From a virus, in IMG/VR virus record IMGVR_UViG_3300020464_000002, positions 1,326 to 65,325 of that record: DNA of 64,000 nucleotides; one strand, 5' to 3'. The notes beneath the pieces were generated by a model that was not told where the DNA came from, made no database searches, and saw only the letters and a list, made by a program, of their open reading frames with translations. A program made the translations under genes and the position numbers. Positions 1,866-31,794 of the stretch are shown in pieces. The first letter of the stretch is position 1. Every line of letters begins with the position of its first letter.

Positions 1866-1939
1866 GGAACACCCCTAAAAGCCCCGCCTAATAACTTGTC
1901 AAAATAGCCTTATCACTCATTCATTGATAAGGCTTTTTT
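1866..1939 (+). promoter_or_regulatory. late promoter-leader module 1
   Basis: GGAACACCCCTAAA at 1866-1879; TGtCAAAAT with hexamer at 1900-1905 (offset 34); inverted repeat AGCCTTATCA 1906-1915 / TGATAAGGCT 1925-1934; T5; ATG 1940. Confidence 0.6.
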
Positions 1940-2560
1940 ATGAAAACAAACACCCCAAGCCTAGCGGCTTACCGCAAGCAATACCAAACGATGAAGTCGT
2001 TAGGTGCTGCTATGTTGGCGTGTAACGCTGTATTGGTTATTGATGGTTACGAAAACCTATACATGCTGATACAAAACTTCCAGCGCCCAATTTGCAGCCA
2101 CCATGACCCCGCTGATGTGGACTTAGCACGCGGCTTACAGGCGCACGCCGCTGGTACGCGTAAAACCAACTTTGAGAGCCAATGGACGTTTATTGAAACC
2201 GAAAGCGGCGTTATTTCACAGTTTGCAGACGACCTAGTAAACATTCATGACGGCATTATCCCGCTGGCACGCGTTTATGACGGTTTTGTTGATGACGGCG
2301 ATAACATCAAAGGCTTGCGTGAATATGAGCTGATCGATTCCGCGATCACGTTTGCTGATGGCGGCGGTGAGATCGATTCAGCCAGCCGCAGTCAGATCTT
2401 ACAAGTACAAGCAAGTTGCCGTTACAACTTCTTTGGTAATGACAGCAAGCTAGGCTCATCAAGCACAGACGTTTTCGCTAACACCTTAAACAGCGCACTA
2501 GGCGCATTTGGCGGCCTAACCGCTACATCCAGTTCAGACAACGTTACCATTTTTGGTTAA
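1940..2560 (+). CDS. virion protein, possible tail-tube-fold (T4 gp19/gp54-like); paralog of 6282..6881
   Basis: Starts 34 nt after the late -10. Shares WTFIETESG / MTFIETSTG and overall size with 6282..6881. Function unverified. Confidence 0.4.
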   Translation: MKTNTPSLAAYRKQYQTMKSLGAAMLACNAVLVIDGYENLYMLIQNFQRPICSHHDPADVDLARGLQAHAAGTRKTNFESQWTFIETESGVISQFADDLVNIHDGIIPLARVYDGFVDDGDNIKGLREYELIDSAITFADGGGEIDSASRSQILQVQASCRYNFFGNDSKLGSSSTDVFANTLNSALGAFGGLTATSSSDNVTIFG

Positions 2561-4684: not shown

Positions 4685-6292
4685 ATGAAACTTTTTGACA
4701 GAATGGCAGGTATGCTCATAAGCAACCGCGAAATGAAACAGACGCGCACACCGTCCAGTATTCATGACGCAAACCATCAGTATGATGCTATGAACCAGTT
4801 TGAGCTTGGCACGTACTACAACAAAGAAAAAATACCGCGCACCCGCCAGCAGATCTACACCATGTGGGAGTTGATGCAAAAAGACCCACAGGTTGCAGAA
4901 GCGTTGAGCTTGCACGCGACCGCCGCACTAGGTGGCCATGAAACGACAGGGGATATGATCTTTATGACCCCGCATGACCGCATTAGAGGCAAAGGCCGCC
5001 GCGCAAAAGAGCTACGCGATAAGGTAGAGCGCGAATCACGTCACATGACGACCATTATCAACCGTCACATATTCCCGCTGGCACGTCAGGCGATCGGTTT
5101 TGGCGATAGCTATGCGCGTATCTATACCGACAAACGTGCTGGCGTGGTTGGCTTGATGAATAATAGACACACCGCGCCGCCGTTGATCATGCCGTTTGAG
5201 CAAGCAGGTGATACGATCGGTTTTCATGCGTTAGAAGAAGAAGACTTTGAGCGCTCAATAGCCAAGTTAACACCTATGCAAATGTTGCGGGTAAAAATGC
5301 CGCGTATCACCAATGTGCCGCAAATGTCGCTACAAGTTTGGCAGGACGAAAAAACGCTTATTTACGACAATCGCTATGACAATCCGATTTTACCGAGTGA
5401 AGTTGGCGGTTCGTTCCTATACCCGATTGAGGAACCGTGGCAAGACGTGACCATTAGCCGCGCTGGACTCAATAACCAGCAGATTGCAGACAGCGTAAAG
5501 CAAGCCTTTTTAACGATCAACATGGAGGGGATGCCGCCAGCGCAATCTAAGAAGTATAAAGAGGGACTTACCAAAATGCTTGGTAACTATCGCGAACAGA
5601 TAGAAGAAGCATTTAAAGGCGGCGAGGCGTTGTACGGCACAAGCTACCACGTCATGCCGCAGTGGGGCGATAAGCAGATCTTACAATCAGTGGGGGATCT
5701 AACACAGCGCCAAGCACCACTTAACGAGGGTACGTTAATGGTCAACCTAAGACGCTTAGCGGGTGGCCTTGGTATTGATCTCGCACTAATGGGGTGGGCT
5801 GATATGCTGGCGGGTGGACTAGGCGATGGGGCGGCGTTCCATACATCAGCACAGATCATGAATAGATCTATGCTTATTCGTCAAGCAATCATTGATGCGC
5901 TTAATCACTTGATGAGCATTCACTGGGGGATAAAGTACGGTGAGCACTTTGACTCTAAAGAGTACCCTTGGCAGTTTGATTTTTACAGCGACCAAAACGC
6001 GGCGGCCTCACAAGCACTAAACAACAAGCAGAACCGCGCCAATACAACAACCATTCAGGTGCAAGCCATACAGATGATCAAGGAGCTGGGCTTAGACAAG
6101 GAGACAGCGCAATTAGTCCTAGAAGATGAAATGGGCTATGACATGGCCATGGCTGAGAAAATTGCTATCTCTATTACCACGCCACCGCCGGCTGAGGGTG
6201 ATCAAATGATGATGATGCCTGATGGACAACCAATGAACCCGCCACAAGATGATGAGCTGCCTGACGAATTGGATTTTGACTATGAGGAATAA
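4685..6292 (+). CDS. portal protein, T4 gp20-like
   Basis: RTRQQIYTMWELMQKDPQVAEALSLHATAA fits the R..R..Y..Y..M...PEI..ALDIYADD signature recalled for gp20-type portals. 535 aa with an acidic C-terminus. Confidence 0.5.
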   Translation: MKLFDRMAGMLISNREMKQTRTPSSIHDANHQYDAMNQFELGTYYNKEKIPRTRQQIYTMWELMQKDPQVAEALSLHATAALGGHETTGDMIFMTPHDRIRGKGRRAKELRDKVERESRHMTTIINRHIFPLARQAIGFGDSYARIYTDKRAGVVGLMNNRHTAPPLIMPFEQAGDTIGFHALEEEDFERSIAKLTPMQMLRVKMPRITNVPQMSLQVWQDEKTLIYDNRYDNPILPSEVGGSFLYPIEEPWQDVTISRAGLNNQQIADSVKQAFLTINMEGMPPAQSKKYKEGLTKMLGNYREQIEEAFKGGEALYGTSYHVMPQWGDKQILQSVGDLTQRQAPLNEGTLMVNLRRLAGGLGIDLALMGWADMLAGGLGDGAAFHTSAQIMNRSMLIRQAIIDALNHLMSIHWGIKYGEHFDSKEYPWQFDFYSDQNAAASQALNNKQNRANTTTIQVQAIQMIKELGLDKETAQLVLEDEMGYDMAMAEKIAISITTPPPAEGDQMMMMPDGQPMNPPQDDELPDELDFDYEE

Positions 6293-6881: not shown

Positions 6882-6886
6882 GCCAC

Positions 6887-6962
6887 GGAACACCCCTAAA
6901 CAGCACCCCTTAAAACTTGTCAGAATAACCGTATCTTATTAATTATTCATAGGTACGGCGAA
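6887..6962 (+). promoter_or_regulatory. late promoter-leader module 2
   Basis: GGAACACCCCTAAA at 6887-6900; TGtCAGAAT with hexamer at 6921-6926 (offset 34); imperfect inverted repeat CCGTATCT 6929-6936 / AGGTACGG 6951-6958; ATG 6963. Confidence 0.6.
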
Positions 6963-9900
6963 ATGGCATACACCAAACAGAATAAAGCGCACAGCAATCA
7001 CTATATCACCAAGCCTGACGGCTCAACCGCCAGTCGGTACAGCCGTTATGAGACTGGACGTATCACAGGCCGCTATCGTGAAATACCAGCCGTTCTAGCG
7101 GACAGCACAGGCTTTGACAGCCTAGGCTTTGATAGCAGCGTTGGCAGCGTTGATGACCGCTGGCACGTTGTTAACGTTTTTGACTCAGTAAATACTTATA
7201 TTGATAGCATTGCCGTTGGCGGCGCGATGGACGGCAACCACGCCTTGCAAATCGCCAAGTCACAGCTAGACAGCTTGGGCGGCACTACTTGCCAGCTAAT
7301 CACCAACAACGCCATGCAGTTTGACGGTATGGATCACGACCACGCATGGTCGATTGATGCCATTAATAAGCTGATGGATAACCCCTCGCAAAACAAGAGC
7401 TACCTACCAGTAATCACCGCGCCTGAATTGGTCGTTGAGGCTGAGCGCGTCACGTTTGATAGCGTGCAGTGGGATAGTAACAACAACCTAATCAGCCATG
7501 GCGGTAAAGACAGCCGCTTGTATCTTGATCTTACCCGCGCTGATACCCGAAACGAGCTTGTCACTGAGTTTGACTTGGCAGACGCGTTATTTGACATGGA
7601 CGCACAGGAAGCGGGTTTTGATGCGTTGATGGACACAAAAAGTCGCTTACCTCTACTAAAAGATCGTTTATTTAAAGCGCTTAGCCAAGCAGGTGATGAA
7701 AGTCTATCTGTAACCAATGTAACGCAAACCAAAGAATTTAAGCGCCAAGGTGTGATTAATATCGCGTTTGTCTTTGATTTGTCAGACGGCCAAAAGCTGT
7801 CTATTTGGTTCCACAAGCCGCTAGAGTCCTCATCCAAACTACTACCAAGCGACTACATGGTGTCGTGGAAGTGGATGTTGAATAAGCGCGATGTAACCGC
7901 CGCATTATCACCAAAACACGGCGATAACGTGCAGTTGCCAGCGCTGGCACGCCGTATCATGCGTGTGGCCGCTAAGAACTCTAAACGCTTTAAAGCCGCG
8001 CAAGCACGCAAGGCCAAGGTTGAGCAAGAGTTATTGGATGCAGAACAAGCAATCGAAGATAAAAAAGCCACGATCAGTCAATTAGACGCTGATATTGCTG
8101 ATATTAACGCTAAAATTGATGCTGCTATGAAAGCGCCCGACTCAGACACAGTTAATGAGTCAGGCTTGCAAGCTGACGAGCCAGCGGACGCGCCAGTAAG
8201 TACGACAGCGGCGACCGCCATCCCCGTAAGAGAAGCGCTTGAATACGTCAAAGCGAATATCTTTGAAGGCAAAGATGATCAAGTCTTAATGTATGTCACC
8301 GATAGAAGTACCGGTGAGATCAAAGAAACTAAGCTAGTGAAGGCGTCGAGCAAATCAGCGCAAACGCGATGGTCAAACAATTTTGTCAATGATGATACGA
8401 CTGGCTCAGTCTATAACCAGTCAATCCCTAAAACCAATAGCAACGCCGCCACCTTACTTGAAGACCTAGGGTACAAGATTAATTATGCCGATCCTGAAGG
8501 TTTCATTGATGATCAATTCAAAGTTGGTGACGCTTACCGCTTTATTGATCCTAACGACGCTAATGACACGGGCAGTGTCTTAGAGTTTAAGAGCTGGGAG
8601 GGTATCAACAGAGGTAACGACGAGCCGATACTATCATTTTCATCGTTTAGCGGCGCAAGTGGCAAGAGCTTTAAGCTTAGCGAGATGCAAAAACTTGTTG
8701 CTGACGGTGCGGCGGTACTGGTAACAGACTCAGAAGCGCAAGAAGCCAAGGATTTTGAAACCGAGCAGCCGGTATCGGTGTATGTGAACAGTAAAGGCCG
8801 TGAATTGGTAACAGTGACGTACAGTCATGGTCAATACAATCTTAAAGGCAGTGGCTTTATGAATGGCGCTGACGATGAAGCGGGCGTGTTAAAGATTTTG
8901 CGATCTATAAGAAAAGACAATAAATCCATGAAGTTGAAAGAGGGTAAAGAATTTTTCCCCGCGGGCGATGACGGTAAAGAATATCCGCCGCTTGAGTATG
9001 ACGCCGAAAGCAAAACAGTTACCGCTTACATGAATAGTAAGAAAAAAGATAGCTGGACGGCCATACCTAAAGACGATGGCGGCTTTACCGTGTACGCCGA
9101 TAACGCCCAAACTCGCGCCTACAGAACCAGCGCACCGAAAATGTTTGATAACAGCGAAGATCTCATTGCCACTTACCCCGCGTTTAGAGGTATCGACGCA
9201 TTATTGGCCAAGCATAGCACTAGCAGCGATGACGTAGACTACGCGGAGATCGATGAAAGCGAGTACCCTGAATTATTCCTAGATCGCAACAGCGATAAGC
9301 TAAATATTTTAGGTATCGGCGATGACAATATTCATGTAGGCAACCAAAACCACGGCGAGGACAGCTATAGCGATCTATACCATATCGACACCGGTATCTT
9401 TAAAGATATGACACTAAACTTTACGGATGCCGTGTGTAAGGTAGTCGATGCTTCCATCGATATAGGTGCTGATGCGGTTGTCGGTGACTATACAGCAACA
9501 GCTTATCAAGATTCAATGTTCGATGACCTTAACAGCAAATCCAACCCCACTTACGGTATCACCGTGCAGATCTCAAAAGATGGTGCTTACTTGCGCGCCG
9601 AAGTCGATGCTTATGGTGAAGCTAAGATCTTAAAAGGCATGAGTGGCCAAGACGTTGTTGCAACCGTAAAACACGTATTTACCGATAATACCGGCGAATA
9701 CAAAACAGCGATTGAAAACGCATTAGACGCACAGGCGGATCAAGATATGGACGATAAAAAAGCAGATGACGATATGAGTACAACAGACACGCATGATGTA
9801 CCTAACACAGCTGAGACAGCGCCAGCAGCCAATATTAGCAACTCAGGCATTCCCGACATAACCAATGCAGATAAAAGCAATGCCTTGGAATATGGAGAAA

Positions 9901-11147
9901 AGCTACTTGATTTTGCAAGGGCTAGCTGGGTTCCGTCTAAATCCTATGATGATATTGATGAGTGGACTAGCGAAGAACAGACGGCGGCGTACAGAAAAGA
10001 GAAAGAGTTAGTAGAAGCAGAGTTTAAAGAAGTTATCCGTCTTTTTGGTGTTCTAAAGCAGTACCGAGCCTATAAAAAGGATCAACAAGAGATTCAAGAA
10101 ATGGCAAATCTAGCAAACAGAGCTTACCTAAGCGGCTGGCGTGGCAATCCGAGTAAAGGAAGTGAGATGAATCGGTTTTTCTCAGCTGTTGACAGAAGAA
10201 AACAAATGGAAATTTACAACGAAACAAAGGAGTGGAATGCTGTTAGTGAAGATCATGTATTCCCACCAGTCGAAAAGATAGGCGATGACGAGTACAGAGC
10301 TTATCGAGATAGCGATAAAAAAGATCATTGGACAGCCAAACACGTTAGAAGTGGAGATTGGGAGGTTGTTATTGATACTGAGCGATCAAGAAATATAAAA
10401 GGCGTTAGTACATTAAGACTTTTTAACAGCATTGATGACATTATCAATGAATACCCAGCATTCAAGGGCGTTAAAGAAATTATTGCAGGCAATGATAAAA
10501 CTAAAAAAGATGACACGCTGGATGATCCCGATGCGTTATTTGCTGCATTTTTTAATGAGTTTTACGATGAGGTTATGAATAGTCAGCGTCCAAAAATACA
10601 AGGTCTGCGATTGTCAGCCAATGCGGTAGATGGAACCAATATATCTTTTGAGTCTGGAAATGGTAAGTCTTACAAAATCTTAGGATCAGAGTACAACCCT
10701 TCAGGTAAAAACGTAAACCTTAATTTGATTGAAGTTAAAGCCAACGGCGCAGGTTACACCTCTCAAAACTCTATGATATCGATTGTTGCTAGTACCAAAG
10801 TGACAAAAAATTCAGACTGGATGGAGTCATTGCGATCTAAGAAAGAGTGGCTCATATCAGAAGTTTTTGACGTACTAGACATAGATTACCAAGAAAAAAA
10901 CAAAGCCGACACAGTAGCGGAGCCAGCCACCAGCGCCGCCGCTAAGCGTATTAACGAGATCGAGCAGCAAATGAGCGCCGCTGATTTTGACCCGATGACC
11001 GTTGATACTGACGAGCTAATCGACTTGGTAGATCAGGTCGAGGGCGATGTGGAGCTTAGCGCCAAGCTAGACTATCTCAGCACGACCCTGCAGCAAAAAA
11101 TAGTTGCCGTCAGCATGAAAGCCCTTACCGATATGGCTGGCGCGTAA
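6963..11147 (+). CDS. giant virion-associated protein (1394 aa), polyvalent-protein-like
   Basis: Uninterrupted 4.2-kb ORF after a late promoter. Contains a coiled-coil segment and an internal duplicated module ending YPAFRG / YPAFKG. No catalytic motif recognised. Confidence 0.55.
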   Translation: MAYTKQNKAHSNHYITKPDGSTASRYSRYETGRITGRYREIPAVLADSTGFDSLGFDSSVGSVDDRWHVVNVFDSVNTYIDSIAVGGAMDGNHALQIAKSQLDSLGGTTCQLITNNAMQFDGMDHDHAWSIDAINKLMDNPSQNKSYLPVITAPELVVEAERVTFDSVQWDSNNNLISHGGKDSRLYLDLTRADTRNELVTEFDLADALFDMDAQEAGFDALMDTKSRLPLLKDRLFKALSQAGDESLSVTNVTQTKEFKRQGVINIAFVFDLSDGQKLSIWFHKPLESSSKLLPSDYMVSWKWMLNKRDVTAALSPKHGDNVQLPALARRIMRVAAKNSKRFKAAQARKAKVEQELLDAEQAIEDKKATISQLDADIADINAKIDAAMKAPDSDTVNESGLQADEPADAPVSTTAATAIPVREALEYVKANIFEGKDDQVLMYVTDRSTGEIKETKLVKASSKSAQTRWSNNFVNDDTTGSVYNQSIPKTNSNAATLLEDLGYKINYADPEGFIDDQFKVGDAYRFIDPNDANDTGSVLEFKSWEGINRGNDEPILSFSSFSGASGKSFKLSEMQKLVADGAAVLVTDSEAQEAKDFETEQPVSVYVNSKGRELVTVTYSHGQYNLKGSGFMNGADDEAGVLKILRSIRKDNKSMKLKEGKEFFPAGDDGKEYPPLEYDAESKTVTAYMNSKKKDSWTAIPKDDGGFTVYADNAQTRAYRTSAPKMFDNSEDLIATYPAFRGIDALLAKHSTSSDDVDYAEIDESEYPELFLDRNSDKLNILGIGDDNIHVGNQNHGEDSYSDLYHIDTGIFKDMTLNFTDAVCKVVDASIDIGADAVVGDYTATAYQDSMFDDLNSKSNPTYGITVQISKDGAYLRAEVDAYGEAKILKGMSGQDVVATVKHVFTDNTGEYKTAIENALDAQADQDMDDKKADDDMSTTDTHDVPNTAETAPAANISNSGIPDITNADKSNALEYGEKLLDFARASWVPSKSYDDIDEWTSEEQTAAYRKEKELVEAEFKEVIRLFGVLKQYRAYKKDQQEIQEMANLANRAYLSGWRGNPSKGSEMNRFFSAVDRRKQMEIYNETKEWNAVSEDHVFPPVEKIGDDEYRAYRDSDKKDHWTAKHVRSGDWEVVIDTERSRNIKGVSTLRLFNSIDDIINEYPAFKGVKEIIAGNDKTKKDDTLDDPDALFAAFFNEFYDEVMNSQRPKIQGLRLSANAVDGTNISFESGNGKSYKILGSEYNPSGKNVNLNLIEVKANGAGYTSQNSMISIVASTKVTKNSDWMESLRSKKEWLISEVFDVLDIDYQEKNKADTVAEPATSAAAKRINEIEQQMSAADFDPMTVDTDELIDLVDQVEGDVELSAKLDYLSTTLQQKIVAVSMKALTDMAGA

Positions 11148-12750: not shown

Positions 12751-12949
12751 AGACGCATTTACGATGGTGGAACACGGCAAAATGAGCTTGCCCGAAGCCC
12801 TTAAAATAGGATTGTCTTTTATAAAGCTGTATCGAGACTCACCAAGTTTTGAGCGCGTATCAAAAACCATTGAAAACGAGCGTATTTACAAGTCAGGCGT
12901 TATAGATCGTTTAAACGCAATCATACAGGTAAGCCAAGCGCGGCGTTAA
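12665..12949 (+). CDS. possible small ORF, start uncertain (12665 GTG, 12763 or 12784 ATG)
   Basis: Overlaps the previous gene in the +1 frame and contains a late-promoter-like motif. Coding status is doubtful. Confidence 0.25.
   Translation: MTAIWSRHDFTPLTIYQGQPQDLQHALLEDAFTMVEHGKMSLPEALKIGLSFIKLYRDSPSFERVSKTIENERIYKSGVIDRLNAIIQVSQARR
12769..12807 (+). promoter_or_regulatory. late-promoter-like motif upstream of lysis cassette (weaker copy)
   Basis: GGAACACGGCAAAA at 12769-12782; TAAAAT at 12802-12807 (offset 33). It lies inside a doubtful ORF, 158 nt before the holin-like gene. Confidence 0.35.
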
Positions 12950-12964: not shown

Positions 12965-13486
12965 ATGAATCACCGCATAGAAACAGCAAGGCTTGCGCTG
13001 GCAAATATAAGCGGCGGCAGCGCAACTTATGTGGCAACCGCATCAAGCGCCGCTGGGCTAAGCCAACAACTCAACCAAACCCATATGTTCTTATATTTGG
13101 ATCTACCGATTTGGATATTTTTTACGGCGGCATTTTTACTGGCAATCGTTGGATCGTTGGGATCTTTATATATTGATGTGATGAGGGAATCTAACCTTAC
13201 GCTCGCTCAAAAATTTATCAACTTGTCATTAGGGTTTATAACAGGACTGCTAGGCGCGTTCGTGGTCTTGCCAGCGTTCACCGCCGCGCCGCCAATGCCA
13301 GTCATCCTACTAACGTCATTAGTCACATCGTTTGCAGGTACGGTTGTTATTAGAAACGTGGGTGATCTTATTCGTAATGAGGAATTGTGGGACGCGGTAA
13401 AAACGCTGGTGATAGAACGCCTAAAAATGCTGTCTATCGACCGTGTTAAAGAACTGCTAACACTATTTTTCGGAGGTCGCAAATGA
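12965..13486 (+). CDS. holin-like membrane protein (about 3 TM segments)
   Basis: GGAGA SD. Hydrophobic stretches IWIFFTAAFLLAIVGSLGSLYI, LSLGFITGLLGAFVVLPAF and VILLTSLVTSFAGTVVI. Lies two genes upstream of the muramidase. Confidence 0.5.
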   Translation: MNHRIETARLALANISGGSATYVATASSAAGLSQQLNQTHMFLYLDLPIWIFFTAAFLLAIVGSLGSLYIDVMRESNLTLAQKFINLSLGFITGLLGAFVVLPAFTAAPPMPVILLTSLVTSFAGTVVIRNVGDLIRNEELWDAVKTLVIERLKMLSIDRVKELLTLFFGGRK

Positions 13487-13884
13487 CCCTTATTAGCTAT
13501 CTATTCAACTGGCACATAATCAATGGCGCAATGCCGTTTTTTGGGATATTAGCCAGCGCTTATATTCTTTTTAGCAGGAAGACTTGCACCGCCAACAAAG
13601 CCATATCTACAGCGCTATCATTGAGCATTATTCTATGGCTAATGCTGATATGGGCTGACTGGGGGAGCGCTGTTTTTACGCCGTCTTATCAAAGCATGTG
13701 GGCGCGAATACTGTTATTGATCGTGTCCACACTCATCATGTTTGAGTTACGCCGAAATACGATAAACAACCAAAAATTAAACCGCGCCAATGCCAGTATT
13801 ATAAAGGAAAACCAACGCCTCAATACGATCAACCAGCTACTACACCAAAAGATTAACCAACAACAAGGATTAAACAATGAGTAA
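13483..13884 (+). CDS. second lysis-cassette membrane protein (holin/antiholin-like), coiled-coil tail
   Basis: ATGA overlap with the upstream gene. About 3 TM segments, then a Q/N-rich helical C-terminus. Overlaps the muramidase start by 8 nt. Confidence 0.4.
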   Translation: MTLISYLFNWHIINGAMPFFGILASAYILFSRKTCTANKAISTALSLSIILWLMLIWADWGSAVFTPSYQSMWARILLLIVSTLIMFELRRNTINNQKLNRANASIIKENQRLNTINQLLHQKINQQQGLNNE

Positions 13885-14458
13885 GTATTTAACCAAACCT
13901 CAAATCGTGGCCGCCGCCAATGATCTTGACGTGGAATATGCGGCGCTAAAATCCGTGCTTGAAGTGGAGTGCCGTAGTAGCGGTTTTTTCAGCACAGGCG
14001 AACCCGCGATCTTGTTTGAGCGCCACGTTTATTGGCGGCGTTTAGGTGATATCTACTGGTACACCAAGCGCTTGCAGATCATGGCCAAACACCCACGCGT
14101 CTGTAATAAGTTTAGCGGCGGCTATGGCAAGTTTAGCGAACAGCACGACAAGCTAGCGATTGCAGCCAGTTACAACCGTGACGTGGCGTTAGAGTCTGCT
14201 AGCTGGGGTATCGGTCAGGTCATGGGCTATCACTGGGAGAAACTGGGCTATCCATCGCTACAGGCGTTTATCAATGATATGTATGAAAGCGAAGCCAAGC
14301 AGCTAGAAGCCGTGGTTCGTTATATCAAACACTTCAATCTTGATGGGGCTTTACGCCGTAAAGACTGGGCGGCGTTCGCTTATGGTTATAATGGCAAGGA
14401 TTACGCCAAAAACAACTATGACGAGAAGCTAAAACAGGCTTACCGCAAGTACGCATAG
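13877..14458 (+). CDS. endolysin, N-acetylmuramidase family (DUF3380-type)
   Basis: LDVEYAALKSVLEVECRSSGF..PAILFERHVY..SASWGIGQVMGYHW..DWAAFAYGYNGKDYAKNNYDEKL matches the conserved blocks of this muramidase family. Confidence 0.8.
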   Translation: MSKYLTKPQIVAAANDLDVEYAALKSVLEVECRSSGFFSTGEPAILFERHVYWRRLGDIYWYTKRLQIMAKHPRVCNKFSGGYGKFSEQHDKLAIAASYNRDVALESASWGIGQVMGYHWEKLGYPSLQAFINDMYESEAKQLEAVVRYIKHFNLDGALRRKDWAAFAYGYNGKDYAKNNYDEKLKQAYRKYA

Positions 14459-16954: not shown

Positions 16955-16996
16955 GTTTAAAAAACGGCAGCCTAGCCAGCGTTTAGCGCTAACCAA

Positions 16997-17021
16997 CCCC
17001 GCCAAAAATGGCGGGGTTTTT
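16997..17021 (+). terminator. intrinsic terminator
   Basis: CCCCGCC / GGCGGGG stem, 6-nt loop, T5. Confidence 0.7.
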
Positions 17022-17025
17022 CATT

Positions 17026-17101
17026 GGAACAGTGTAAAAGTTGCTAGCCGTTTACTTGTCATAATTGGTTATTGCTTTTTATAACCAATCGGACAGCATT
17101 T
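17026..17101 (+). promoter_or_regulatory. late promoter-leader module 4
   Basis: GGAACAGTGTAAAA at 17026-17039; TGtCATAAT with hexamer at 17060-17065 (offset 34); inverted repeat ATTGGTTAT 17064-17072 / ATAACCAAT 17081-17089; ATG 17102. Confidence 0.55.
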
Positions 17102-20100
17102 ATGAAAACAGATCAAACGCCGTCAGGCACTAAAGCCAAGTTTAAAAACATTGCCGACCTACAAGCCGCGCTTGCCAAGTTGCAAGGCGCAACCAACACA
17201 AAAGACCGACTAGCCGCCACACAAGGCGTTGTCGATGTTTTGAAAAGAATTGGATCGCTGAGATCGATAACCATTCAAGAGGCCAAAAACGGCAAACTTG
17301 ATGACGATCATGACACGCCAGCACCAGCCGCCGAAAAAACGCCAACCAGTGATATTGTTGATCGTACTGGCATGGTTGAGCTGGCGGGAACCAGTAAGCG
17401 CCAAGCAGCCAATAATAAAGCGGTCGAACTTTTGGCCAAAATCAAGGCCGAGGGCTTAACCCGCGATGATCTATCATCTGAGCAGATCGAAACGCTGGCG
17501 GCCTATACTGGCAGCGGCGGCGGCCTGATCTCAAACAAGGGTAAACGCGGTAGCGCTTACGAGTATTACACCCCCAAAGCCGTTGCCTCAAAAATGTGGG
17601 AATTGGCCTCAGAAATGGGCTTTACTGGCGGCAAGGTACTAGATCCGAGCGCTGGTACTGGCGTTTTTGCGGCCACCAGCCCTGAAAGTGCCGTTATTGA
17701 CAGTATCGAGCTTGACGAAGTATCAGGCGGCATTGCCTCGATCTTAAACGATGGGGATCGCAGCAATACGGTTGTATCGTCTTTTGAGAAGCGCAACGAG
17801 CTGATCGCAGATGATAGTCTCGATATGGTAATGACAAACGTGCCTTTTGGCGACAATAAAACACGCGGCGAGCACAAAATGGACGATGACGCGTACCAAA
17901 ATGAGAGCTTAGAGACTTACTTTATCTTGCGTTCGCTTGAAAAGATTAAGCACGGCGGCCTTGCCGTATTTATCACGCCAACGTCTGTGATCTCAGGCAA
18001 AAAAGGCGACAAGGAACGCTTGCGCAAATTGACCAGCCTAAAAGCTGAGCTGCTGGGCGCGTACCGCTTACCAAACAAAGTATTTGAACAGACAGGCGCG
18101 GACGTAATGACGGATATCATTGTTTATCGCAAGCATAGCCGTGAAGCGACCGATCAAATCAACGCGCTGTATGAAGCTGGCGATATGGACACGTTGGCCA
18201 AAACCAAGGTCATGTGGGATGAATATATCAGCGGCGCTTATTTTAAAAACCCAATCCATAAAGCTAAATTCATGTTGGGTAACGAAGTGCAAGTACCAAG
18301 CCGTTTTAACCCCGAAGAAATGGTAACGGCGCTAAGCAACCCCAAACCAACGCCTGAGATCATGAAAGACATTAAAAAGTTTGGCGGTAGTCGTATTGAT
18401 TGGGAAGCACTGGGCGCAGCTGAGGCCGCTTATATCGAATACAACAACGGTGACGTGATATTCCAAAACGGCAAGCAATTAGAGTACCAAGACGGCCGCT
18501 GGCACGTTATGGCCGCCGAGCCGACCGACAGTGACCGTGAAATGCAGAAGGCACTTGCTAACATGGGCAGTGCGATCGAAATGGTTGTAGCTGGCATGAC
18601 GTTTGACATGATGGATCGTGTGAACAGCTACACCTTAACGACTGGCCAAGCCGATTTAATCCCGCGTGCTGCTAGATCTTTGTTTAATCGAACCCTCGTT
18701 GTCGCCCCTAAAATGCGTGCCGCCGCGTGGAATTGCGTTATCGCAGCACAAGCGATAAAAGACGTGATCGCCGAGCAAGATTATGGCTATGACTTCATGA
18801 CCAACGAGCCGGCCTTGACCAGCTTTATGAAAACCGCCTTTTTGGACGGCAAAAATACCAAGCTGACCAAAGAACCAAAGCAAGACTTTAATTTTGTCAA
18901 ACTCTACTACGATAATGGCAAGTATAACGCGGTATGGCGCGGCCAAATTGATACCGAGGTCGAAGTTAAGGACGAGGCGCGATCTTATACAAGCCTTATT
19001 GCACGTATGCAGTATGACAATAAGAGCCTATATTTAAGCCGTGAGCAGTTGGCCAAAGTTAACCCCGATACTGACCCATTAACCGATAATGAGTGGTTTA
19101 TCAATCATGACGGCAGCCAAGTTATCGCCGCTAGTGACTTTTTGACTGGCAGCTTATCGAATTGTTTGGCCAAGATTGACGAGCAGATCAAACAAGCGAC
19201 CGACAGCAAGATCATTGCCAAGCTAGAACAGCAAAAACTATTTGCGACTGAAAACGTAACACGTATCAACTTGCAAAGCGTGGACTTTGACTTGCGCAGC
19301 CCACTAATCAGCGCCGAGGACAAAGTACGCTTTTTAAAGCAGTCAGTGCACAAAGACGCGTATATCTCGTTTGATGAGTACGGCAAGGGCACGCCTGATA
19401 TTGACGTAAAAGGCGGCAATCTAAGGGATGAAGAAAAGCTGTATAACCGTATCGGTGACTGGTTGGCTAAGGGAACCGTGACCACTGGCGGCGTGACACT
19501 TAGCAGAATGACCGAGCGTGAAGCGCTGGACTGGATGAGCGAGCAAATTAACGTTGCTAACGTCAAATTTAGCAGCTGGGTTAAAGCCAACGACAAGCTA
19601 ATGGCCAGCCTTGAGCGCACCATAAACCATAACGACAACCTATTTTTTAGCCAAAACAGTGATGAATCACCAGTCGAAATCGCTGGCATGAACCCTCAAC
19701 TCAAGTTGCATGGCTATCAAAACGCGTTTGTGCGCAGCCAAGGCCGACATTTTGGCGGGATTAACGGCATGGGCGTTGGACTTGGTAAGACGTTTTCGTC
19801 ATTGTCCAGCACGCAACATGCGCATAATATTGGCGCTAAGAAAAAAACTATTTTTGTTGTGCCAAATAGCGTGCTGTCAAACTGGCGTAAAGAGGTCGAT
19901 TTTGCCTATACCAGCACTGATGACTGTTTGTTTGTTGGCTTGCGTGAAAAGGGCGACCAATTCCGCGTCTATTCCAACAAGTATGATGAAGATCTACTAA
20001 AAGCGGTCGATAGCAAGTACCGTAAGATTTTTATGACTTATGAAGCGTTTAAGCGTATTAGATTGAAAGATGAGACTATAGCGGACTATGCAAGGTACGT

Positions 20101-23100
20101 TAAACAAAACGATTCAGCCTACGCTAATAAAGACTTGCAAAAAGCCAATGAAAAAGCCAAGGGCATGATTGCTGAGTTAATCGATCGCCTATCGATGGAC
20201 ACCAACGCGCCATTTTTAGAAGACATGCGCGTTGATAGCGTGGTGATCGATGAAGCCCATGCGTTCAAAAACTCAATCAGTGCGCCCAATACAGACAACC
20301 GTATTAAGTACCTATCACAGCCCCAAGAGTCAGCACGCGGTGAGGACGCACAGGCTAAGTTATTTTACATACGCGGCCTGACCCCAGCCAATGACGGCGT
20401 GCAGCTGCTAACAGCAACACCTATCACCAACAGCCCCTTGGAGATCTACTCTATGCTATCGCTGGCTGGCGGTCGTGACACAGTAAATAAAATGTGTGGC
20501 GGTATTGTGGGTGCAGACGACTTTTTGGCCGTTATGTGCCAAATTGAAGAAGAAGTCGTACCAACGATTGACGGCAAGACGCGCTCACAAAACGTTTTTA
20601 CTGGCATTAGAAACGCGCAGATCTTGAAAAAAGCGGTACGAGCCAATGCCGTGATCAAGGACGCGCAAGACGTTGGCATGTCGGTTGTTATTCCCGAACG
20701 TGAAGAATTGGCAACCTCGGTCAATTTAGGCAAAGAGATTGACGGCCAGTTAAGAGAATTACAAGATGCGTATGTGGTAGCGCGTCAGATCGAGGCTGAA
20801 AAGCTGGACAATGAATTAAAAGACCCAACCCATCCACAAAGCCCATACAATCCAAAAAGCCCTTATAGCATTGTTGCTGGCAAGTACGGTGAAACCAACG
20901 ATCTAATAGCACACCCATTCAACCTGATCCGTAAGATGGACGTAATGATTGCCGATGCTGAGTTTAGCGAGGGTGTGACGTTTTATGACTTTGACGAAAA
21001 CCAACAGGCGATCGCTGAAAAGGTAGTGAACCAATTTAGCAACGGTAGAAAAAAACACACTGATGAACGTTCGCGCCCTAGCGCATACACTGCTGAGGAA
21101 GACGCTAAACCGATCTATAAGAAAGAAGACGGCGAACAGGTGCTAAAGGGTTATAAAATCGCTTGCAAGGCTAGAATTGTTATCCACAAAGGCCGTTCAC
21201 GTATTATGATTGACACAATCGAGAGCAAGTTTCAATCCAGTTTTGAGGCTATGGCCGATAAAGCCAAGCTAAATCTTGATGTTGCCGTGTCTGCTAAAGT
21301 TGCGGCCTTGCTTGAAAACTTTAAAAACGAACAGGCCAACCCGCGTGGGATCAGTAACGACAATACAACCAGCAAGATCGTTAAGCAGATCATCTTCTGT
21401 GATCACTTATTTTTGCATAACAAGATCAAGCGTGTTTTAATCAAACGCGCTGGCGTGCCAGCTAACAAGATCGTCATCATTACAGGACAGACAAATAACG
21501 ATCCTGACAAAATGATCGATATTCAAGACGGTTTTAACGCGTTTGGTGCAGATAATCAGTATCAAGTGGTTATTGCTAACAAGAAAGCTGAGGTCGGTAT
21601 CAACTTGCAACGTGGTACGCAAGCAATCCATCATTTAACGACTGGCTGGACACCCGACAGCTTAGAGCAGCGCAACGGACGCGGCGCACGCCAAGGCAAC
21701 AAGACAGAGAGGGTTAAGATTTTTCATTATGACGCGGACGGCACGTTTGATGAGTTTAAACGCACCATGATCGACAAAAAGGATGAGTGGATCACCAGCG
21801 TGTTATCAGATGAAGACACGAACACGATTGAGGTATCAGGCAGTATCACCCGCGCTGAGCAAGACGCGCTTATTCGTTTGGGTGGTGATCGTGAGGCCAT
21901 GCGTGCGTATCAAGCCGAGCGTGACGCACAAGAGGCGCAAGCGCGTAAGGAAGCCGCTATCAAGCGTCATAAAGTCAATATGCAAGTCGTTGATGAGCAA
22001 ACCAAGATTGTTAAAAAGCTCAAGATAGATGATTTTTATGAGAACGCTGTAAAAGAAGTCGTTAACCTCATTAAAGATAATAACGTTGTCTATAAGAAAA
22101 TACACGCTAACAAAAGCAGCGCCAGCACCAAAGCAAACAGCACCAAGCGTTACAATGCCACCAAGTCGGTTATCCTCGATAAGATCGAAGAAATTTTTGA
22201 TAACGTGAAATCACAGGCGGTAAATAGTAATTGGGTAGCAATAGAGAGTATCAGTCCTTATCGCGCCACTATTAGCGCTGAGGATGCCTATGATATCGTG
22301 CAAAACAACTTAGGTCGCGGCGAAAATTTTGCTAATGATAATAGTGGATCATGGGCGGTGCATTTTGCTCGTAAGATTTTAACCCATGGCGCTAATTTTG
22401 ATAGATCCAAAACTATTATCAACAGCGATGGTATTTATCAAGCCACGTATGATGAGATCAACACAACGGCTAGAAACCTCATTAAGCAAGCGCTACTAGC
22501 AGCAAATGAGTTGGCCGATCGTGCTGGCTTGGCTGGCATGACGATACCTGACGATGCAGGTAATTTAATTGCTGACGGTAAAGCGGTTATTCATGATGGT
22601 TTTTTCTTTATGGCTGGCTCGATTGCAATTAGCGATCAGTGGTCGCCAGTTAGAAAAGAGGACTTTTTATTTGCAATTAACGATAAATTGAGAGGCCACG
22701 CACTAACAAGCCGCGTAGATACAAGGGGCGTAACCGTTTATCAAAGCCCCGAAAGCTCACCTCAAGGCATAAAAGCAAAAGCAGTTATTCATCCAAACAC
22801 GCCTGAATACCTAGAATACGTTAAGGCTATGGCTAAGATTGAAGATGAGCACTACGGCGCAGGGCAGTTAAGCGAAGCCGTTTACAGTAATATCATTCCT
22901 CAAGTTGCCGAATATAGAGATAATAGTATTCAACCGTTGTGGCATTTAAGCCCTAATTTAGCTGGCCGTCAGGTTGGCTTATCAAATTGCGACTTCTTGG
23001 TGATGTTGCCTTATGAGGTTTTGGCCGCTGGCACGCCGTTTGCGAATAAAATGCTAAGCGACTATAGCGCCGCTGGCATTAGTATTGATCTTGATAGCAA

Positions 23101-23788
23101 AACTTATCAAGCGACTAACGACAAAGTGCAAATTAACGCCGATCAATACGATACGCAAATGATCCACGATCTTTATTACAGTTATGTTGGTTTAATGATT
23201 AAGCATAGCGGCGTTAAGTTAACCGCTGACGATAAAGCGCTAATGGGGCAACCTCAGATTATAGCTGAGCTATTAAAGGAACCAGCTGATCAGTTGATAA
23301 CCGCGCTTAGAGCCGCCGCCGACAGCATTACCGAGCGCCAAAGCAATCGAGTGTTAGAAGATATGGTCGTTAAATTGTTTGATGATCTTATTTATAGCGA
23401 TGAATATATGAGCGATGAGCCAACAGCCGATATGAAGATTTATACGCTAGAATATGTTTATGACGAACACTTAAACCGTCAAAATGTTTTAGATGCCGTG
23501 GACTTCTTACGGACTGAGAGCAGCAAAAACATTGCTGAGGCTAAAGTTAAGGCGATGGGCTTAGAGGCAAGCGCCGCTGGTATAAAAGACAGCGACACGG
23601 TTTACGTTAGCGGTGATACCCAAACGTACTATAAAACTATCAAGGCATACGGCAATAAAAACGGTGAGAAAGCAAGATATCAAGGCAATAAATACCAGTC
23701 GTGGGCGATGAGTTTTAGAGCCTACAAAGAAATGATAACCGCTAGACCTGAATTGGCTAATCTTTTACCTATGAGCAAAACACGATAA
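17102..23788 (+). CDS. DarB-like N6-adenine DNA methyltransferase + SNF2/DEAH helicase polyvalent protein
   Basis: MTase motifs LDPSAGTGVF and NVPFG. Helicase motifs GVGLGKT, VIDEAHAFKN, LLTATPITNS and QRNGRGARQG. The ATG at 17102 is chosen because the predicted TSS falls near the listed 17072 start. Confidence 0.85.
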   Translation: MKTDQTPSGTKAKFKNIADLQAALAKLQGATNTKDRLAATQGVVDVLKRIGSLRSITIQEAKNGKLDDDHDTPAPAAEKTPTSDIVDRTGMVELAGTSKRQAANNKAVELLAKIKAEGLTRDDLSSEQIETLAAYTGSGGGLISNKGKRGSAYEYYTPKAVASKMWELASEMGFTGGKVLDPSAGTGVFAATSPESAVIDSIELDEVSGGIASILNDGDRSNTVVSSFEKRNELIADDSLDMVMTNVPFGDNKTRGEHKMDDDAYQNESLETYFILRSLEKIKHGGLAVFITPTSVISGKKGDKERLRKLTSLKAELLGAYRLPNKVFEQTGADVMTDIIVYRKHSREATDQINALYEAGDMDTLAKTKVMWDEYISGAYFKNPIHKAKFMLGNEVQVPSRFNPEEMVTALSNPKPTPEIMKDIKKFGGSRIDWEALGAAEAAYIEYNNGDVIFQNGKQLEYQDGRWHVMAAEPTDSDREMQKALANMGSAIEMVVAGMTFDMMDRVNSYTLTTGQADLIPRAARSLFNRTLVVAPKMRAAAWNCVIAAQAIKDVIAEQDYGYDFMTNEPALTSFMKTAFLDGKNTKLTKEPKQDFNFVKLYYDNGKYNAVWRGQIDTEVEVKDEARSYTSLIARMQYDNKSLYLSREQLAKVNPDTDPLTDNEWFINHDGSQVIAASDFLTGSLSNCLAKIDEQIKQATDSKIIAKLEQQKLFATENVTRINLQSVDFDLRSPLISAEDKVRFLKQSVHKDAYISFDEYGKGTPDIDVKGGNLRDEEKLYNRIGDWLAKGTVTTGGVTLSRMTEREALDWMSEQINVANVKFSSWVKANDKLMASLERTINHNDNLFFSQNSDESPVEIAGMNPQLKLHGYQNAFVRSQGRHFGGINGMGVGLGKTFSSLSSTQHAHNIGAKKKTIFVVPNSVLSNWRKEVDFAYTSTDDCLFVGLREKGDQFRVYSNKYDEDLLKAVDSKYRKIFMTYEAFKRIRLKDETIADYARYVKQNDSAYANKDLQKANEKAKGMIAELIDRLSMDTNAPFLEDMRVDSVVIDEAHAFKNSISAPNTDNRIKYLSQPQESARGEDAQAKLFYIRGLTPANDGVQLLTATPITNSPLEIYSMLSLAGGRDTVNKMCGGIVGADDFLAVMCQIEEEVVPTIDGKTRSQNVFTGIRNAQILKKAVRANAVIKDAQDVGMSVVIPEREELATSVNLGKEIDGQLRELQDAYVVARQIEAEKLDNELKDPTHPQSPYNPKSPYSIVAGKYGETNDLIAHPFNLIRKMDVMIADAEFSEGVTFYDFDENQQAIAEKVVNQFSNGRKKHTDERSRPSAYTAEEDAKPIYKKEDGEQVLKGYKIACKARIVIHKGRSRIMIDTIESKFQSSFEAMADKAKLNLDVAVSAKVAALLENFKNEQANPRGISNDNTTSKIVKQIIFCDHLFLHNKIKRVLIKRAGVPANKIVIITGQTNNDPDKMIDIQDGFNAFGADNQYQVVIANKKAEVGINLQRGTQAIHHLTTGWTPDSLEQRNGRGARQGNKTERVKIFHYDADGTFDEFKRTMIDKKDEWITSVLSDEDTNTIEVSGSITRAEQDALIRLGGDREAMRAYQAERDAQEAQARKEAAIKRHKVNMQVVDEQTKIVKKLKIDDFYENAVKEVVNLIKDNNVVYKKIHANKSSASTKANSTKRYNATKSVILDKIEEIFDNVKSQAVNSNWVAIESISPYRATISAEDAYDIVQNNLGRGENFANDNSGSWAVHFARKILTHGANFDRSKTIINSDGIYQATYDEINTTARNLIKQALLAANELADRAGLAGMTIPDDAGNLIADGKAVIHDGFFFMAGSIAISDQWSPVRKEDFLFAINDKLRGHALTSRVDTRGVTVYQSPESSPQGIKAKAVIHPNTPEYLEYVKAMAKIEDEHYGAGQLSEAVYSNIIPQVAEYRDNSIQPLWHLSPNLAGRQVGLSNCDFLVMLPYEVLAAGTPFANKMLSDYSAAGISIDLDSKTYQATNDKVQINADQYDTQMIHDLYYSYVGLMIKHSGVKLTADDKALMGQPQIIAELLKEPADQLITALRAAADSITERQSNRVLEDMVVKLFDDLIYSDEYMSDEPTADMKIYTLEYVYDEHLNRQNVLDAVDFLRTESSKNIAEAKVKAMGLEASAAGIKDSDTVYVSGDTQTYYKTIKAYGNKNGEKARYQGNKYQSWAMSFRAYKEMITARPELANLLPMSKTR

Positions 23789-24980: not shown

Positions 24981-25030
24981 CATTAACGAACACTAACGAA
25001 CATTGACAAGCATCAACAAACATCGTAATA
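24981..25030 (+). repeat. phased 10-bp repeats CA(T/C)(T/C)(A/G)AC(G/A)A(A/G), 5 copies
   Basis: cattaacgaa, cactaacgaa, cattgacaag, catcaacaaa, catcgtaata. Same family as 24881-24920. Confidence 0.55.
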
Positions 25031-25074
25031 ATGCACACAGAACACACACGGCCTTACACACAGGAATTGCAACT

Positions 25075-26238
25075 ATGATCACTAAAGACAGTCAGGTTAA
25101 GTCTTTAAAACCTAAAGAAAAAAGGTACACTAATGCCGCTGGTGACGGCTTGTTCCTTGATGTTATGCCAACTGGTAAGAAATCATGGACGGTGGCGTAC
25201 AGCAAGAACGGTAAACGCACACGAACCAAGATAGGTACTTATCCAGTATTGTCATTAAAGGATGCACGCGTATTAGCTCAGGATCTACAACGTCAAGCAT
25301 TGTTAGGTTATAGCGATATACTGATGAAAGATCTTGTTAAGGAATGGTTATCAGTTTATAGCCCTAACTGGACGAGTAAAAAATATGAAAAAAATGTAAT
25401 TCATCGACTAGAATTGGTCACAGAGCGCATAGCTGACGTGAAAGCAAACGAGGTGACACGCTCGATGATCTCGGATGAGATAGGGCTAATTGTAGGCAGG
25501 GGTACGATAGAAACGGCCAATCGTTGCTTGCGGCTTATTAAAACCGTCTTTGATTATGCCGTAGCTAAAGAGTATGTTGAGACCAACCCATGCACATTGG
25601 TTAGCAAGATGATACCCGCTAGAAAGGTCGTTAATATGGCCTCATTGCCGATCAGCGAAATGCCTAAATTTTGGACAGCGCTTAACTATATGGACATGGC
25701 TTATGAAACTAAGCAAGCAATAGCGCTTTATAATTATCTTGCTTGCCGACCAAGTGAGCTGGTAAAGGCGCGATGGGATACTGGTGAGTTTGACTTAGAT
25801 AAGGGTGTTTGGATTATCCCAAAACACCGTATGAAAATGCGGCTTGAGCACATGATACCGCTAACCGAAAAACCATTACAGATACTCAGAGATCTATACG
25901 ATCGCCGCATTGATGATGAGTTTGTTTTTAAGAAAAAAAATAAGCCTTGGGAACACATGCCAACAGAAACGCCGCTGGCAGCGGTAAAGCGAGCTGCTGG
26001 TAATGGTAAGATGACAACACATGGTTTTAGATCGCTACTATCAACCAATGCGAACGAGGCCAAACTAGCGGACGGCACGCGCATGTTTCATGAAGACATT
26101 ATTGAGCGTCATTTAGCACACGTACCGCATAATAAAGGCCGCGCCGCTTATAATCGCGCTAAATACTGGAATGACAGGGTAAGGTTGATGGAATGGTGGG
26201 CGGCGATTGTTACGCCATGGATTGAACCTGAATCTTGA
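25075..26238 (+). CDS. int: tyrosine integrase, P4-type
   Basis: N-terminal KSLKPKEKRYTNAAGDGLFLDVMPTGKKSW (P4-int arm-binding domain pattern); CRPSEL, HGFRS, HLAHV..AAYNRAKY catalytic blocks. The ATG at 25075 with an AGGA SD is preferred to the listed 25003. Confidence 0.9.
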   Translation: MITKDSQVKSLKPKEKRYTNAAGDGLFLDVMPTGKKSWTVAYSKNGKRTRTKIGTYPVLSLKDARVLAQDLQRQALLGYSDILMKDLVKEWLSVYSPNWTSKKYEKNVIHRLELVTERIADVKANEVTRSMISDEIGLIVGRGTIETANRCLRLIKTVFDYAVAKEYVETNPCTLVSKMIPARKVVNMASLPISEMPKFWTALNYMDMAYETKQAIALYNYLACRPSELVKARWDTGEFDLDKGVWIIPKHRMKMRLEHMIPLTEKPLQILRDLYDRRIDDEFVFKKKNKPWEHMPTETPLAAVKRAAGNGKMTTHGFRSLLSTNANEAKLADGTRMFHEDIIERHLAHVPHNKGRAAYNRAKYWNDRVRLMEWWAAIVTPWIEPES

Positions 26239-27059: not shown

Positions 27060-27120
27060 ACTTAAAACCTTTTAATTGCTGGCCGTCATCGAGCGTGACG
27101 GCTCCTTAAAATTTGATTAA

Positions 27121-28050: not shown

Positions 28051-28065
28051 AAAATTCCTCTCTAT

Positions 28066-28377: not shown

Positions 28378-28429
28378 TATTTAATATCCTTATGCTTAAT
28401 AAGGCGGCCAAGCGACCGCCTATTTTGGC

Positions 28430-29491: not shown

Positions 29492-29492
29492 T

Positions 29493-31781: not shown

Positions 31782-31794
31782 TTTGATCAGGCAA

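Follow-up and report, generated by a model that had tools for sequence, protein, structure and literature searches.

What purpose is served by the inverted repeats that lie across the late promoters and leaders of the phage genome in IMG/VR record IMGVR_UViG_3300020464_000002? The window (the whole stretch of DNA analysed, 64,000 nucleotides, positions 1,326 to 65,325 of that record) is a nearly complete, circularly permuted genome of a temperate Psychrobacter phage of ~65 kb, with ~1.2 kb lying outside the window; permutation and near-completeness follow from its relatives, which have the tail-tube gene ~3 kb after the last promoter considered here (module G). The best explanation of the repeats is probably that they form a hairpin only in RNA reading through from upstream, where it acts as a terminator, as a lock on the ribosome-binding site, or as both, and that transcripts begun at the local promoter bypass it.

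The promoters concerned belong to a single class, consisting of TGGAACACCCCTAAA, a gap of 27-28 nt, and TAnnnT. Eleven occur in the window, with the upstream motif at 1865-1879, 6886-6900, 17025-17039, 41773-41787, 44858-44872, 49417-49431, 53955-53969, 59009-59023, 60258-60272, 61153-61167 and 63649-63663; the motif is confined to the coding strand, ahead of late genes, and TGGAACACCCCTAAA has 9 matches in the window at three or fewer mismatches against 1.1 expected. The offset of the hexamer, 33-34 nt from GGAACA (27-28 nt between GGAACAC and the hexamer), is fixed in the window modules. The hexamers themselves are CAAAAT, CAGAAT, CATAAT (twice), TAAAAT, TAAACT, TAACAT, TATACT (three times) and TACAAT, four of the 11 being preceded by TGn, the extended -10 pattern. 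Relatives supply more than 70 further promoters of the TGGAACACCCCTAAA/TAnnnT class. A first set of 65 distinct promoters with this architecture combines window and relatives, and more were present in genome contigs. A replication set of 17 came from a pattern scan of viral contigs: the 14-mer gave 119 matches, mostly due to chance, of which 19 passed filters for a -10 and an open reading frame (ORF), 17 of them family-like promoters and two (L062, L091) chance-like.

Nine arm pairs had been listed in the original prediction for this DNA, all on the plus strand, and all nine are where it placed them: six are perfect over 9-12 bp, module B has one T.G pair, module F3 one A.A mismatch, and module G only 5 bp. 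They amount to ~7 independent cases, because F1 to F3 are copies of one duplicated module in front of paralogous genes. In module A (promoter 1865-1905, with TGGAACACCCCTAAA at 1865-1879 and a -10 of CAAAAT, preceded by TGT, at 1900-1905), the upstream stop codon is at 1842 and no separate terminator precedes the promoter; the hairpin (1906-1939) has a perfect 10-bp stem, AGCCTTATCA/TGATAAGGCT (1906-1915/1925-1934), a 9-nt loop, AGG at 1930 and TTTTT at 1935-1939, with the tail-tube ATG at 1940 and a predicted start at ~1912. Module B begins 5 nt past the upstream stop, again with no terminator (promoter 6886-6926, CGGAACACCCCTAAA, -10 CAGAAT at 6921-6926), and its arms CCGTATCT/AGGTACGG (6929-6936/6951-6958, the T.G being a U.G pair in RNA) include AGG at 6951, ahead of a DarA-like ATG at 6963, with no T-run. 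Module D follows a weaker hairpin with a T-run that is counted as a separate upstream terminator (44800-44832); its promoter (44858-44898, GGAACACCCCACCAG, -10 TAAACT at 44893-44898) leads into a hairpin at 44887-44935 with outer arms CCCCTTAAA/TTTAAGGGG (44888-44896/44919-44927, a perfect 9 bp), an inner stem ACGT/ACGT, a total stem of 18-20 bp and a predicted energy of -22.5 kcal/mol, then TTTTTT at 44930-44935 and ATG at 44936. Module E (53955-54049; TGGAACACCCCTAAA, -10 TAACAT at 53990-53995) adjoins an intrinsic terminator on its upstream side (53926-53946) and has a perfect long-range 10-bp repeat, TTAATCCTAT (53995-54004)/ATAGGATTAA (54040-54049), with AGG at 54042, no T-run, and the capsid-like ATG at 54054.

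The F modules are the most compact. F1 (59009-59081, GGAACA at 59010) has its -10, TATACT at 59043-59048, within the left arm of a perfect 12-bp repeat, GCCTATACTGAG (59040-59051)/CTCAGTATAGGC (59062-59073), followed by ATTTTATT and ATG at 59082. F2 (60258-60330) repeats this with the -10 at 60293-60298, perfect 12-bp arms at 60290-60301/60311-60322, then TTTTTATT and ATG at 60331. In F3, the tail-sheath module (61153-61226), the -10 is at 61188-61193, the arms with the A.A mismatch are at 61185-61196/61207-61218, ATTTTATT again follows the right arm, and the ATG is at 61227.

Where would transcripts start relative to these arms? Most promoters have 31-37 nt between the last base of the -10 and the ATG, and with the start placed 7 nt after the hexamer (annotation of phage P1 implies 7-8) leaders are therefore just ~25-30 nt long. 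In modules A, B, C and E the predicted +1 lies within the final 1-4 nt of the left arm, in D, F1-F3 and G within the loop; the 5' arm begins 3-20 nt upstream of it, and the segment of that arm able to pair with the Shine-Dalgarno sequence is always upstream of the predicted start. The geometry would thus suit a start site within or after the 5' strand of the helix, with starts placed by the -10. The prediction that left arms overlap or abut the -10 holds at every listed arm, with TAnnnT at its fixed distance after GGAACAC: the hexamer is itself part of the arm in D and F1-F3, and elsewhere the arm starts 0-3 nt after it. RNA begun 5-9 nt downstream of the -10, in the last bases of the left arm or in the loop, should, as was proposed, lack that arm. 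The right arm was said to carry the only AGG, 10-15 nt before the ATG; it does carry the sole AGG of the last 25 nt in eight of nine modules, at a distance of 9-13 nt rather than 10-15. T-runs, described as frequent, follow five of the nine hairpins (A, D, F1-F3), and no run of four or more T is found at B, C, E or G.

That the two arms belong together is shown by pairing the last 20 nt ahead of the predicted start with the 25 nt that run up to the AUG (RNAduplex). Matched segments from all 65 promoters average -10.9 kcal/mol, as against -5.7 for pairs drawn from different modules; for nine independent window modules the figures are -10.9 and -5.6 ± 0.5, and none of 14,751 derangements reaches the observed value. 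Moving the start cut anywhere between 4 and 10 nt past the -10 leaves the excess in the window intact. No matched excess was seen in the window modules for a control 20-mer whose end lies 4 nt upstream of the -10 (-7.2 vs -6.8), and the replication set reproduced the effect (-9.7 matched, -6.9 mismatched).

Predicted accessibility agrees with the suggestion that the ribosome-binding site would be masked in read-through RNA and free in local RNA. The modelled opening cost, an ensemble free energy for freeing positions -15 to +5 of pairing (n = 65), averages 4.2 kcal/mol for RNA started at the predicted +1, 12.1 for read-through RNA extended 36 nt upstream, and 7.1 when the upstream segment comes from another module (read-through vs foreign, paired Wilcoxon p = 1e-10). 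For the window modules the ranges are 2.4-5.3 kcal/mol (local) and 6.8-19.4 (read-through).

One alternative is that transcription starts upstream of the left arm, placing the hairpin in the local RNA, where it could be an attenuator or premature terminator answering to a Q-like factor, a 5' stabiliser, or a translational operator. Terminators in 5' untranslated regions just past promoters are common in some phages (PMC10914365), and this phage has a lambda-like early region with an ORF of 213 amino acids (aa) (38758-39399) at the place expected for Q. Even so, the idea is improbable. TAnnnT lies inside the left arm (D, F1-F3) or 0-3 nt before it, and a sigma-70 start cannot precede the arm; nor is the hexamer mere stem sequence, because the same offset is kept in hairpin-less promoters such as module Y. 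There are 11 dispersed promoters rather than a single one of the Q type, and folding predictions leave the ribosome-binding region of local RNA almost without structure. With the 5' arm upstream of the predicted +1, a 5'-terminal stabilising stem-loop of the ompA type would not form either.

Are the hairpins instead plain intrinsic terminators of the upstream units, the overlap of -10 and Shine-Dalgarno sequence being a by-product of compaction with no selected translational role? This is unlikely, even though the five T-runs speak for it, as does their distribution. If a T-run means at least 4 consecutive T within the last 12 nt ahead of the ATG, and a separate terminator a G+C-rich one just upstream of GGAACA, the 75 junctions of the first set include 3 with both, 24 with a T-run only, 28 with a separate terminator only and 20 with neither, a complementarity with a Fisher p of 7e-5 that does not correct for phylogeny. 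The replication set has 0, 8, 6 and 5 in the same order. In the window, C, E and G have a separate terminator without a T-run, A and F1-F3 the reverse, D both, and B, X and Y neither; the switch has occurred independently within module A (window, L026 and L016/L017 vs six others) and within module G. Leader hairpins have a median of -9.2 kcal/mol where there is a separate terminator vs -13.8 where there is none (p = 0.056). Like ordinary intrinsic terminators, A, D and F1-F3 stand at the end of a unit and have a stem with a G+C-rich base and 4-6 T within 0-2 nt of it, the rho-independent form; the F1 hairpin is the top terminator-like site in a pattern scan; and the intergenic spaces, ~100 nt, are fully occupied. 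Unlike ordinary terminators, these have the next -10 in or against their 5' arm and the next gene's Shine-Dalgarno sequence in their 3' arm, transcripts of the next unit should never contain the whole hairpin, and B, C, E and G, which are not of rho-independent form, have no U-tract.

Conservation in relatives also bears on this alternative. In orthologous upstream regions the hairpin is shown to stay in place as its stem sequence changes. Module A has AGCCTTATT/AATAAGGCT in relative L007, AACCCTATC/GATAGGGTT in L016/L017 and a U.G pair in L006, with compensatory changes of G-C to A-U, U-A to C-G and C-G to U-A. The F family exists in two registers, one with the -10 inside the left arm (window, L008, L010, L011, L026) and one in which the left arm, GCCTATAC, is distinct from the -10 and starts 2 nt past it (L012, L016, L017), and a T-A to C-G double change is present in L016/L017 paralogues. 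In module D the outer stem is invariant and the inner stem wholly different in two clades, self-complementary in each. Module G, weak in the window, is strong and has a T-run in L016/L017, where module Y also has a 12-bp hairpin, CCTACACTAAGT/ACTTAGTGTAGG. New stems in the replication set include AACCCCAAA/TTTGGGGTT and AACCCTATTA/TAATAGGGTT, and a Moraxella prophage has TCCTAT/ATAGGA and ATGATA/TATCAT at the same positions. Three of these patterns are not what plain terminators would lead one to expect: hairpins without a T-run are conserved and still cover the Shine-Dalgarno sequence (B, E, and A in six relatives); the arm segment complementary to that sequence stays upstream of +1 despite the register shift, the GCCT that pairs with AGGC of the ribosome-binding site lying there in both F registers; and module Y in L012/L014 has a 9-bp hairpin that masks the stretch from Shine-Dalgarno sequence to AUG with no T-run at all.

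A further possibility is that the repeats act as DNA, either as sites for dimeric proteins (operators or a recombinase) or as extruded hairpins like those of phage N4. They do overlap the -10 and start site, where an operator would sit, and in the F modules the 12-10-12 layout is reminiscent of a tyrosine-recombinase core site. Arm sequences are unrelated between modules of one phage, however, which leaves no single protein able to read them all; loops vary from 8 to 35 nt, and spacers differ even among the three F copies. Differing spacers and the unrelated arms of other modules led to rejection of recombinase core sites for the F repeats. Mismatches, moreover, are mostly T.G, tolerated in plus-strand RNA, with A.C fewer: interior G.U pairs and A.C mismatches in the predicted helices number 18 to 5, an excess that points to coding-strand RNA although the folding algorithm inflates the count. 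The association with T-runs and Shine-Dalgarno sequences makes sense for RNA alone, and module Y works without a repeat. A role at the DNA level deserves hardly any credence.

The hairpin might also serve the upstream message, as 3' exonuclease protection or as a processing site, with any downstream effects incidental. Hairpins do stand at the 3' end of each upstream unit, and the 18-20 bp stem of module D is a possible RNase III target. Most stems are only 8-12 bp, however, below RNase III length, and RNase III sites were rejected on that account; separate terminators, where present, already give a 3' stem-loop; and the placing of the Shine-Dalgarno sequence in the 3' arm and of the -10 in the 5' arm is left unexplained. 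This proposal too is very improbable.

The principle behind the preferred explanation, a hairpin confined to read-through RNA, is already known. In phage T4, longer RNAs of the genes e (lysozyme), soc, 49 and I-TevI, begun at promoters further upstream, form a helix in which the Shine-Dalgarno sequence or AUG is hidden; each gene's own late promoter lies within the DNA for the 5' strand of the helix, and late transcripts, without that strand, are translated (PMC3014915). Shine-Dalgarno sequestration of this type is predicted here, with an opening cost of 7-19 kcal/mol in read-through RNA, but not for modules C and Y. The differences are that T4 uses the gp55 promoter TATAAATA and this phage a sigma-70 -10 with GGAACAC upstream; that T4 applies the device to a few genes, early vs late, and this phage to most late promoters, between units of one temporal class; and that about half of the cases here add a U-tract and should terminate. 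Fold-back inhibition in IS10/Tn10, credited to Davis, Simons and Kleckner in 1985, is said to work similarly: in read-through RNA from outside, an upstream segment reportedly pairs with the transposase ribosome-binding site, and the element's own promoter reportedly starts inside the structure, giving an RNA that can be translated. That case concerns a single transposon gene, has no fused terminator, and has low transposition as its purpose.

Phage P1 offers a closer comparison. It has related structural genes (DarA, DarB, Ulx, sheath, tube, PmgG), and its Lpa-dependent late promoters likewise lack a -35 and have a TANNNT -10; the P1 element is a 9-bp box, AAGTGACTT, at -22 (4 nt upstream of the -10), as against TGGAACACCCCTAAA at ~-47 to -33. 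The 9 nt at the position of the P1-type box are not conserved among the window promoters; what is conserved, TGGAACACCCCTAAA, lies 20 nt further upstream. P1 LPsit has the same hairpin geometry (CTCGTAGAAT/ATTCTACGAG, 10 bp, -21 kcal/mol), and shorter or weaker forms occur at LPdar (CCTCCT/AGGAGG), LP23 (CTCTTCC/GGAAGAG) and LPpac (CTTTCGT/ACGAAAG), a minority of P1 late promoters, compared with most of those here. At these four (in AF234172, L024/L025: LPsit 46608-46626, LPdar 31212-31230, LP23 58825-58843, LPpac 90475-90493), sequence that coincides with the -10 or directly follows it is complementary to the Shine-Dalgarno region of the unit's first gene; the genes concerned are pmgC, the holin gene lydA, capsid gene 23 and pacA, and no discussion of this was found in the accessible literature.

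Several observations weigh against hairpins that terminate or mask only read-through RNA. In module C (17025-17089; GGAACA at 17026, -10 CATAAT at 17060-17065), which follows a canonical GC-rich intrinsic terminator adjoining the promoter (16995-17018), the perfect 9-bp hairpin ATTGGTTAT/ATAACCAAT (17064-17072/17081-17089) has no T-run and, as the original prediction had noticed, no AGG in its right arm, and it masks no Shine-Dalgarno sequence ahead of the DarB-like ATG at 17102. The leader of module Y, the tail-fibre promoter (49417-49456; GGAACACGTCTAAT, GGAACA at 49418, -10 TAAAAT at 49451-49456), has no hairpin or repeat in the window. The hairpins of modules G and X are weak: G (63649-63725; GGAACACCGCCAAT, -10 TACAAT at 63684-63689, ATG 63730), adjoined upstream by a strong intrinsic terminator (63615-63645), has a 5-bp outer repeat, CACCT 63680-63684/AGGTG 63721-63725, with an inner stem and no T-run, and X (41773-41841; GGAACA at 41774, -10 CATAAT at 41808-41813, ATG 41847), absent from the earlier list, has a 5-bp repeat, ATGCC 41804-41808/GGCAT 41837-41841, covering AAGG. 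Across all 11 P1 late promoters, the matched vs mismatched comparison is not significant (p ~0.11). Relatives with a terminator already in place upstream of modules E and A still keep the hairpins there, and leaky read-through must therefore be assumed in those cases. The upstream units are also late genes, which makes the benefit of blocking read-through a matter of inference. The uncorrected phylogeny and the inflated G.U count mentioned above lessen the force of those two results. Formal covariation (MAFFT) is modest; stems shift register and sequences are few. Three pairs of module A have changed on both sides, with 27/500 shuffles reaching the observed value, as has one pair of module E. 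More weight therefore goes to the finding that the same position is occupied by unrelated stems.

How would such elements operate? The late genes would be split into short units, each with an activator-type promoter composed of TGGAACACCCCTAAA and a sigma-70 -10, TAnnnT, with no -35. In most units the 25-30 nt leader and the -10 region would together encode a hairpin whose 3' arm holds the Shine-Dalgarno sequence. Read-through RNA, carrying both arms, would terminate where a U-tract follows (A, D, F1-F3) and elsewhere continue with its ribosome-binding site locked (B and E; weakly, G and X). RNA from the unit's own promoter would lack the 5' arm and be neither terminated nor masked. What the sequences show directly is the anatomy, its specificity and conservation, and the complementary distribution of T-runs and separate terminators, which accords with this scheme, as does the lack of a separate terminator ahead of A, B, F1-F3, X and Y; the start positions, the termination and the translational effect are deduced. 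Each sequence-level test made of the original proposal came out in its favour. The purpose could be to dose abundant structural proteins independently, tube, sheath and capsid each standing at the head of a unit; alternatively, it could be to keep late genes silent against stray transcription in the lysogen.

A more ambitious version is close to evenly balanced, leaning somewhat to the doubtful side: that the whole late regulon consists of self-opening insulators, each hairpin both terminating the upstream unit and locking the downstream gene, with transcription begun inside the hairpin as the sole way past the lock, in a lineage that extends from prophages of Psychrobacter and Moraxella as far as traces in E. 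coli P1, and that these set structural stoichiometry and lysogen silence. Regulon-wide use, fusion with a terminator, and the promoter class itself appear to be undescribed. If the explanation is correct, a temperate phage family would systematically apply, at most of its late promoters, the rule known from T4 and IS10 that only a gene's own promoter yields translatable RNA, with a single element of 30-40 nt uniting terminator, promoter -10 and ribosome-binding site. Hairpins near start codons in compact genomes could then not be annotated as terminators or as 5' untranslated structure until the start site was known. The hairpins at P1 LPsit, LPdar, LP23 and LPpac would gain a testable rationale, and synthetic operons could be built with insulator parts that are compact and portable.

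The analysis also flags an uncharacterised late-promoter class in Moraxellaceae phages. It is common to Psychrobacter and Moraxella prophages, with a degenerate form of the motif, GGAAC[TC], in Acinetobacter phage ABMM1, and may be read as an activator-dependent sigma-70 type with a specific element at ~-47 to -33 and no -35 element; neither the class nor its presumed activator appears to have been described. A sigma-54 promoter was rejected because the GG/GC spacing does not fit. For an extracytoplasmic function (ECF)/sigma-E promoter, GGAAC is -35-like, but the conserved hexamer is 27-28 nt away, not 16-17, and only modules A to C have the GTCAAA-like sequence. Reading GGAACA as the -35 of a -10 placed 17 nt further on was rejected as well, since the positions there are not conserved. 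As for the activator, tblastn with P1 Lpa found no homologue in the window, the best match having E = 2.3 (~1.2 kb of the genome being outside it), and sequence searches of Pfam, PHROGs and PDB with the ORFs at 37310-41592 gave only a weak HTH_3 match, in 39906-40655. Candidate activator ORFs are 38758-39399, 39555-39821, 39906-40655 (the one with that match) and 40648-41592. A further match to the promoter pattern, at 12768-12807 (TGGAACACGGCAAAA, then TAAAAT at 12802-12807), lies ~150 nt before a probable lysis cassette (membrane proteins 12965-13486 and 13483-13884; endolysin 13877-14458); its GGAACA, at 12769, was not counted as a promoter, as it is not conserved in relatives L020 and L022 and may be due to chance.

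The late genes of the window are a P1-type set. Protein-family scans identified a tail tube (1940-2560), a DarA-like protein (6963-11147), a DarB-like protein (17072-23788), a tail fibre (49493-51856), a capsid-like protein of 604 aa (54054-55868) and a tail sheath (61227-62615), all on the plus strand, together with portal (4685-6292), endolysin (13877-14458) and large terminase (47744-49297), as well as PmgG-like and Ulx-like proteins. The early region, at 25-41 kb, is lambda-like, with an integrase, a minus-strand CI-like repressor, Cro-like and CII-like regulators, an anti-repressor, an O-like replication protein, a methyltransferase and a RusA-like resolvase. The genome is thus a mosaic (25003-26238, 26538-41592) in which P1-like morphogenesis and anti-restriction genes (DarA, DarB, Ulx) are joined to an integrase and lambda-like immunity and replication, and it is therefore probably an integrating prophage rather than a plasmid prophage of the P1 type. 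Megablast with 20 kb of the window found no DNA-level match among GenBank phages; a search of the whole window on both strands gave no Rfam family at the gathering threshold, and a tRNA scan of the window found none. The closest genomes are Psychrobacter prophages, the capsid-like protein of P. piscatorii HQB-372 (contig NZ_JBHZRK010000004.1) being 96% identical; that of a Moraxella boevrei prophage has 43% identity, and the nearest annotated phage, Acinetobacter vB_AbaM_ABMM1, 32%.

Some smaller features of the genome also deserve mention. Three paralogous genes (56735-57823, 59082-59429 and 60331-61143; 362, 115 and 270 aa) share a near-identical N-terminal domain of ~90 aa, whose only match is to positions 6-90, the N-terminus, of the tail-sheath profile phrog_1036; positions 105-531 of that profile are matched by the sheath gene at 61227-62615, which does not have the domain. 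Relatives have two to five such cassettes each, and the sheath N-domain appears to be encoded separately, in variable copy number. A good intrinsic terminator (10-bp stem, TTTT) at 56681-56707 lies 28 nt ahead of the ATG at 56735 and is followed by no GGAACAC promoter, and the first cassette is therefore without an obvious promoter of its own. A small ORF, 41618-41761, for a hydrophobic peptide of 47 aa, MGKILEVIDKIIGVVIEQSPRWLAIVFYMMVLSMLITWVGSMFSYYY, lies directly upstream of the late promoter with GGAACA at 41774, the first in the right arm. Finally, downstream of the terminase gene and ahead of the tail-fibre promoter, five TTGCAA hexamers in strict 7-nt phase (49317-49350) form a 34-bp near-palindrome, TTGCAACTTGCAATTTGCAATTTGCAAGTTGCAA, that looks like a protein-binding array.

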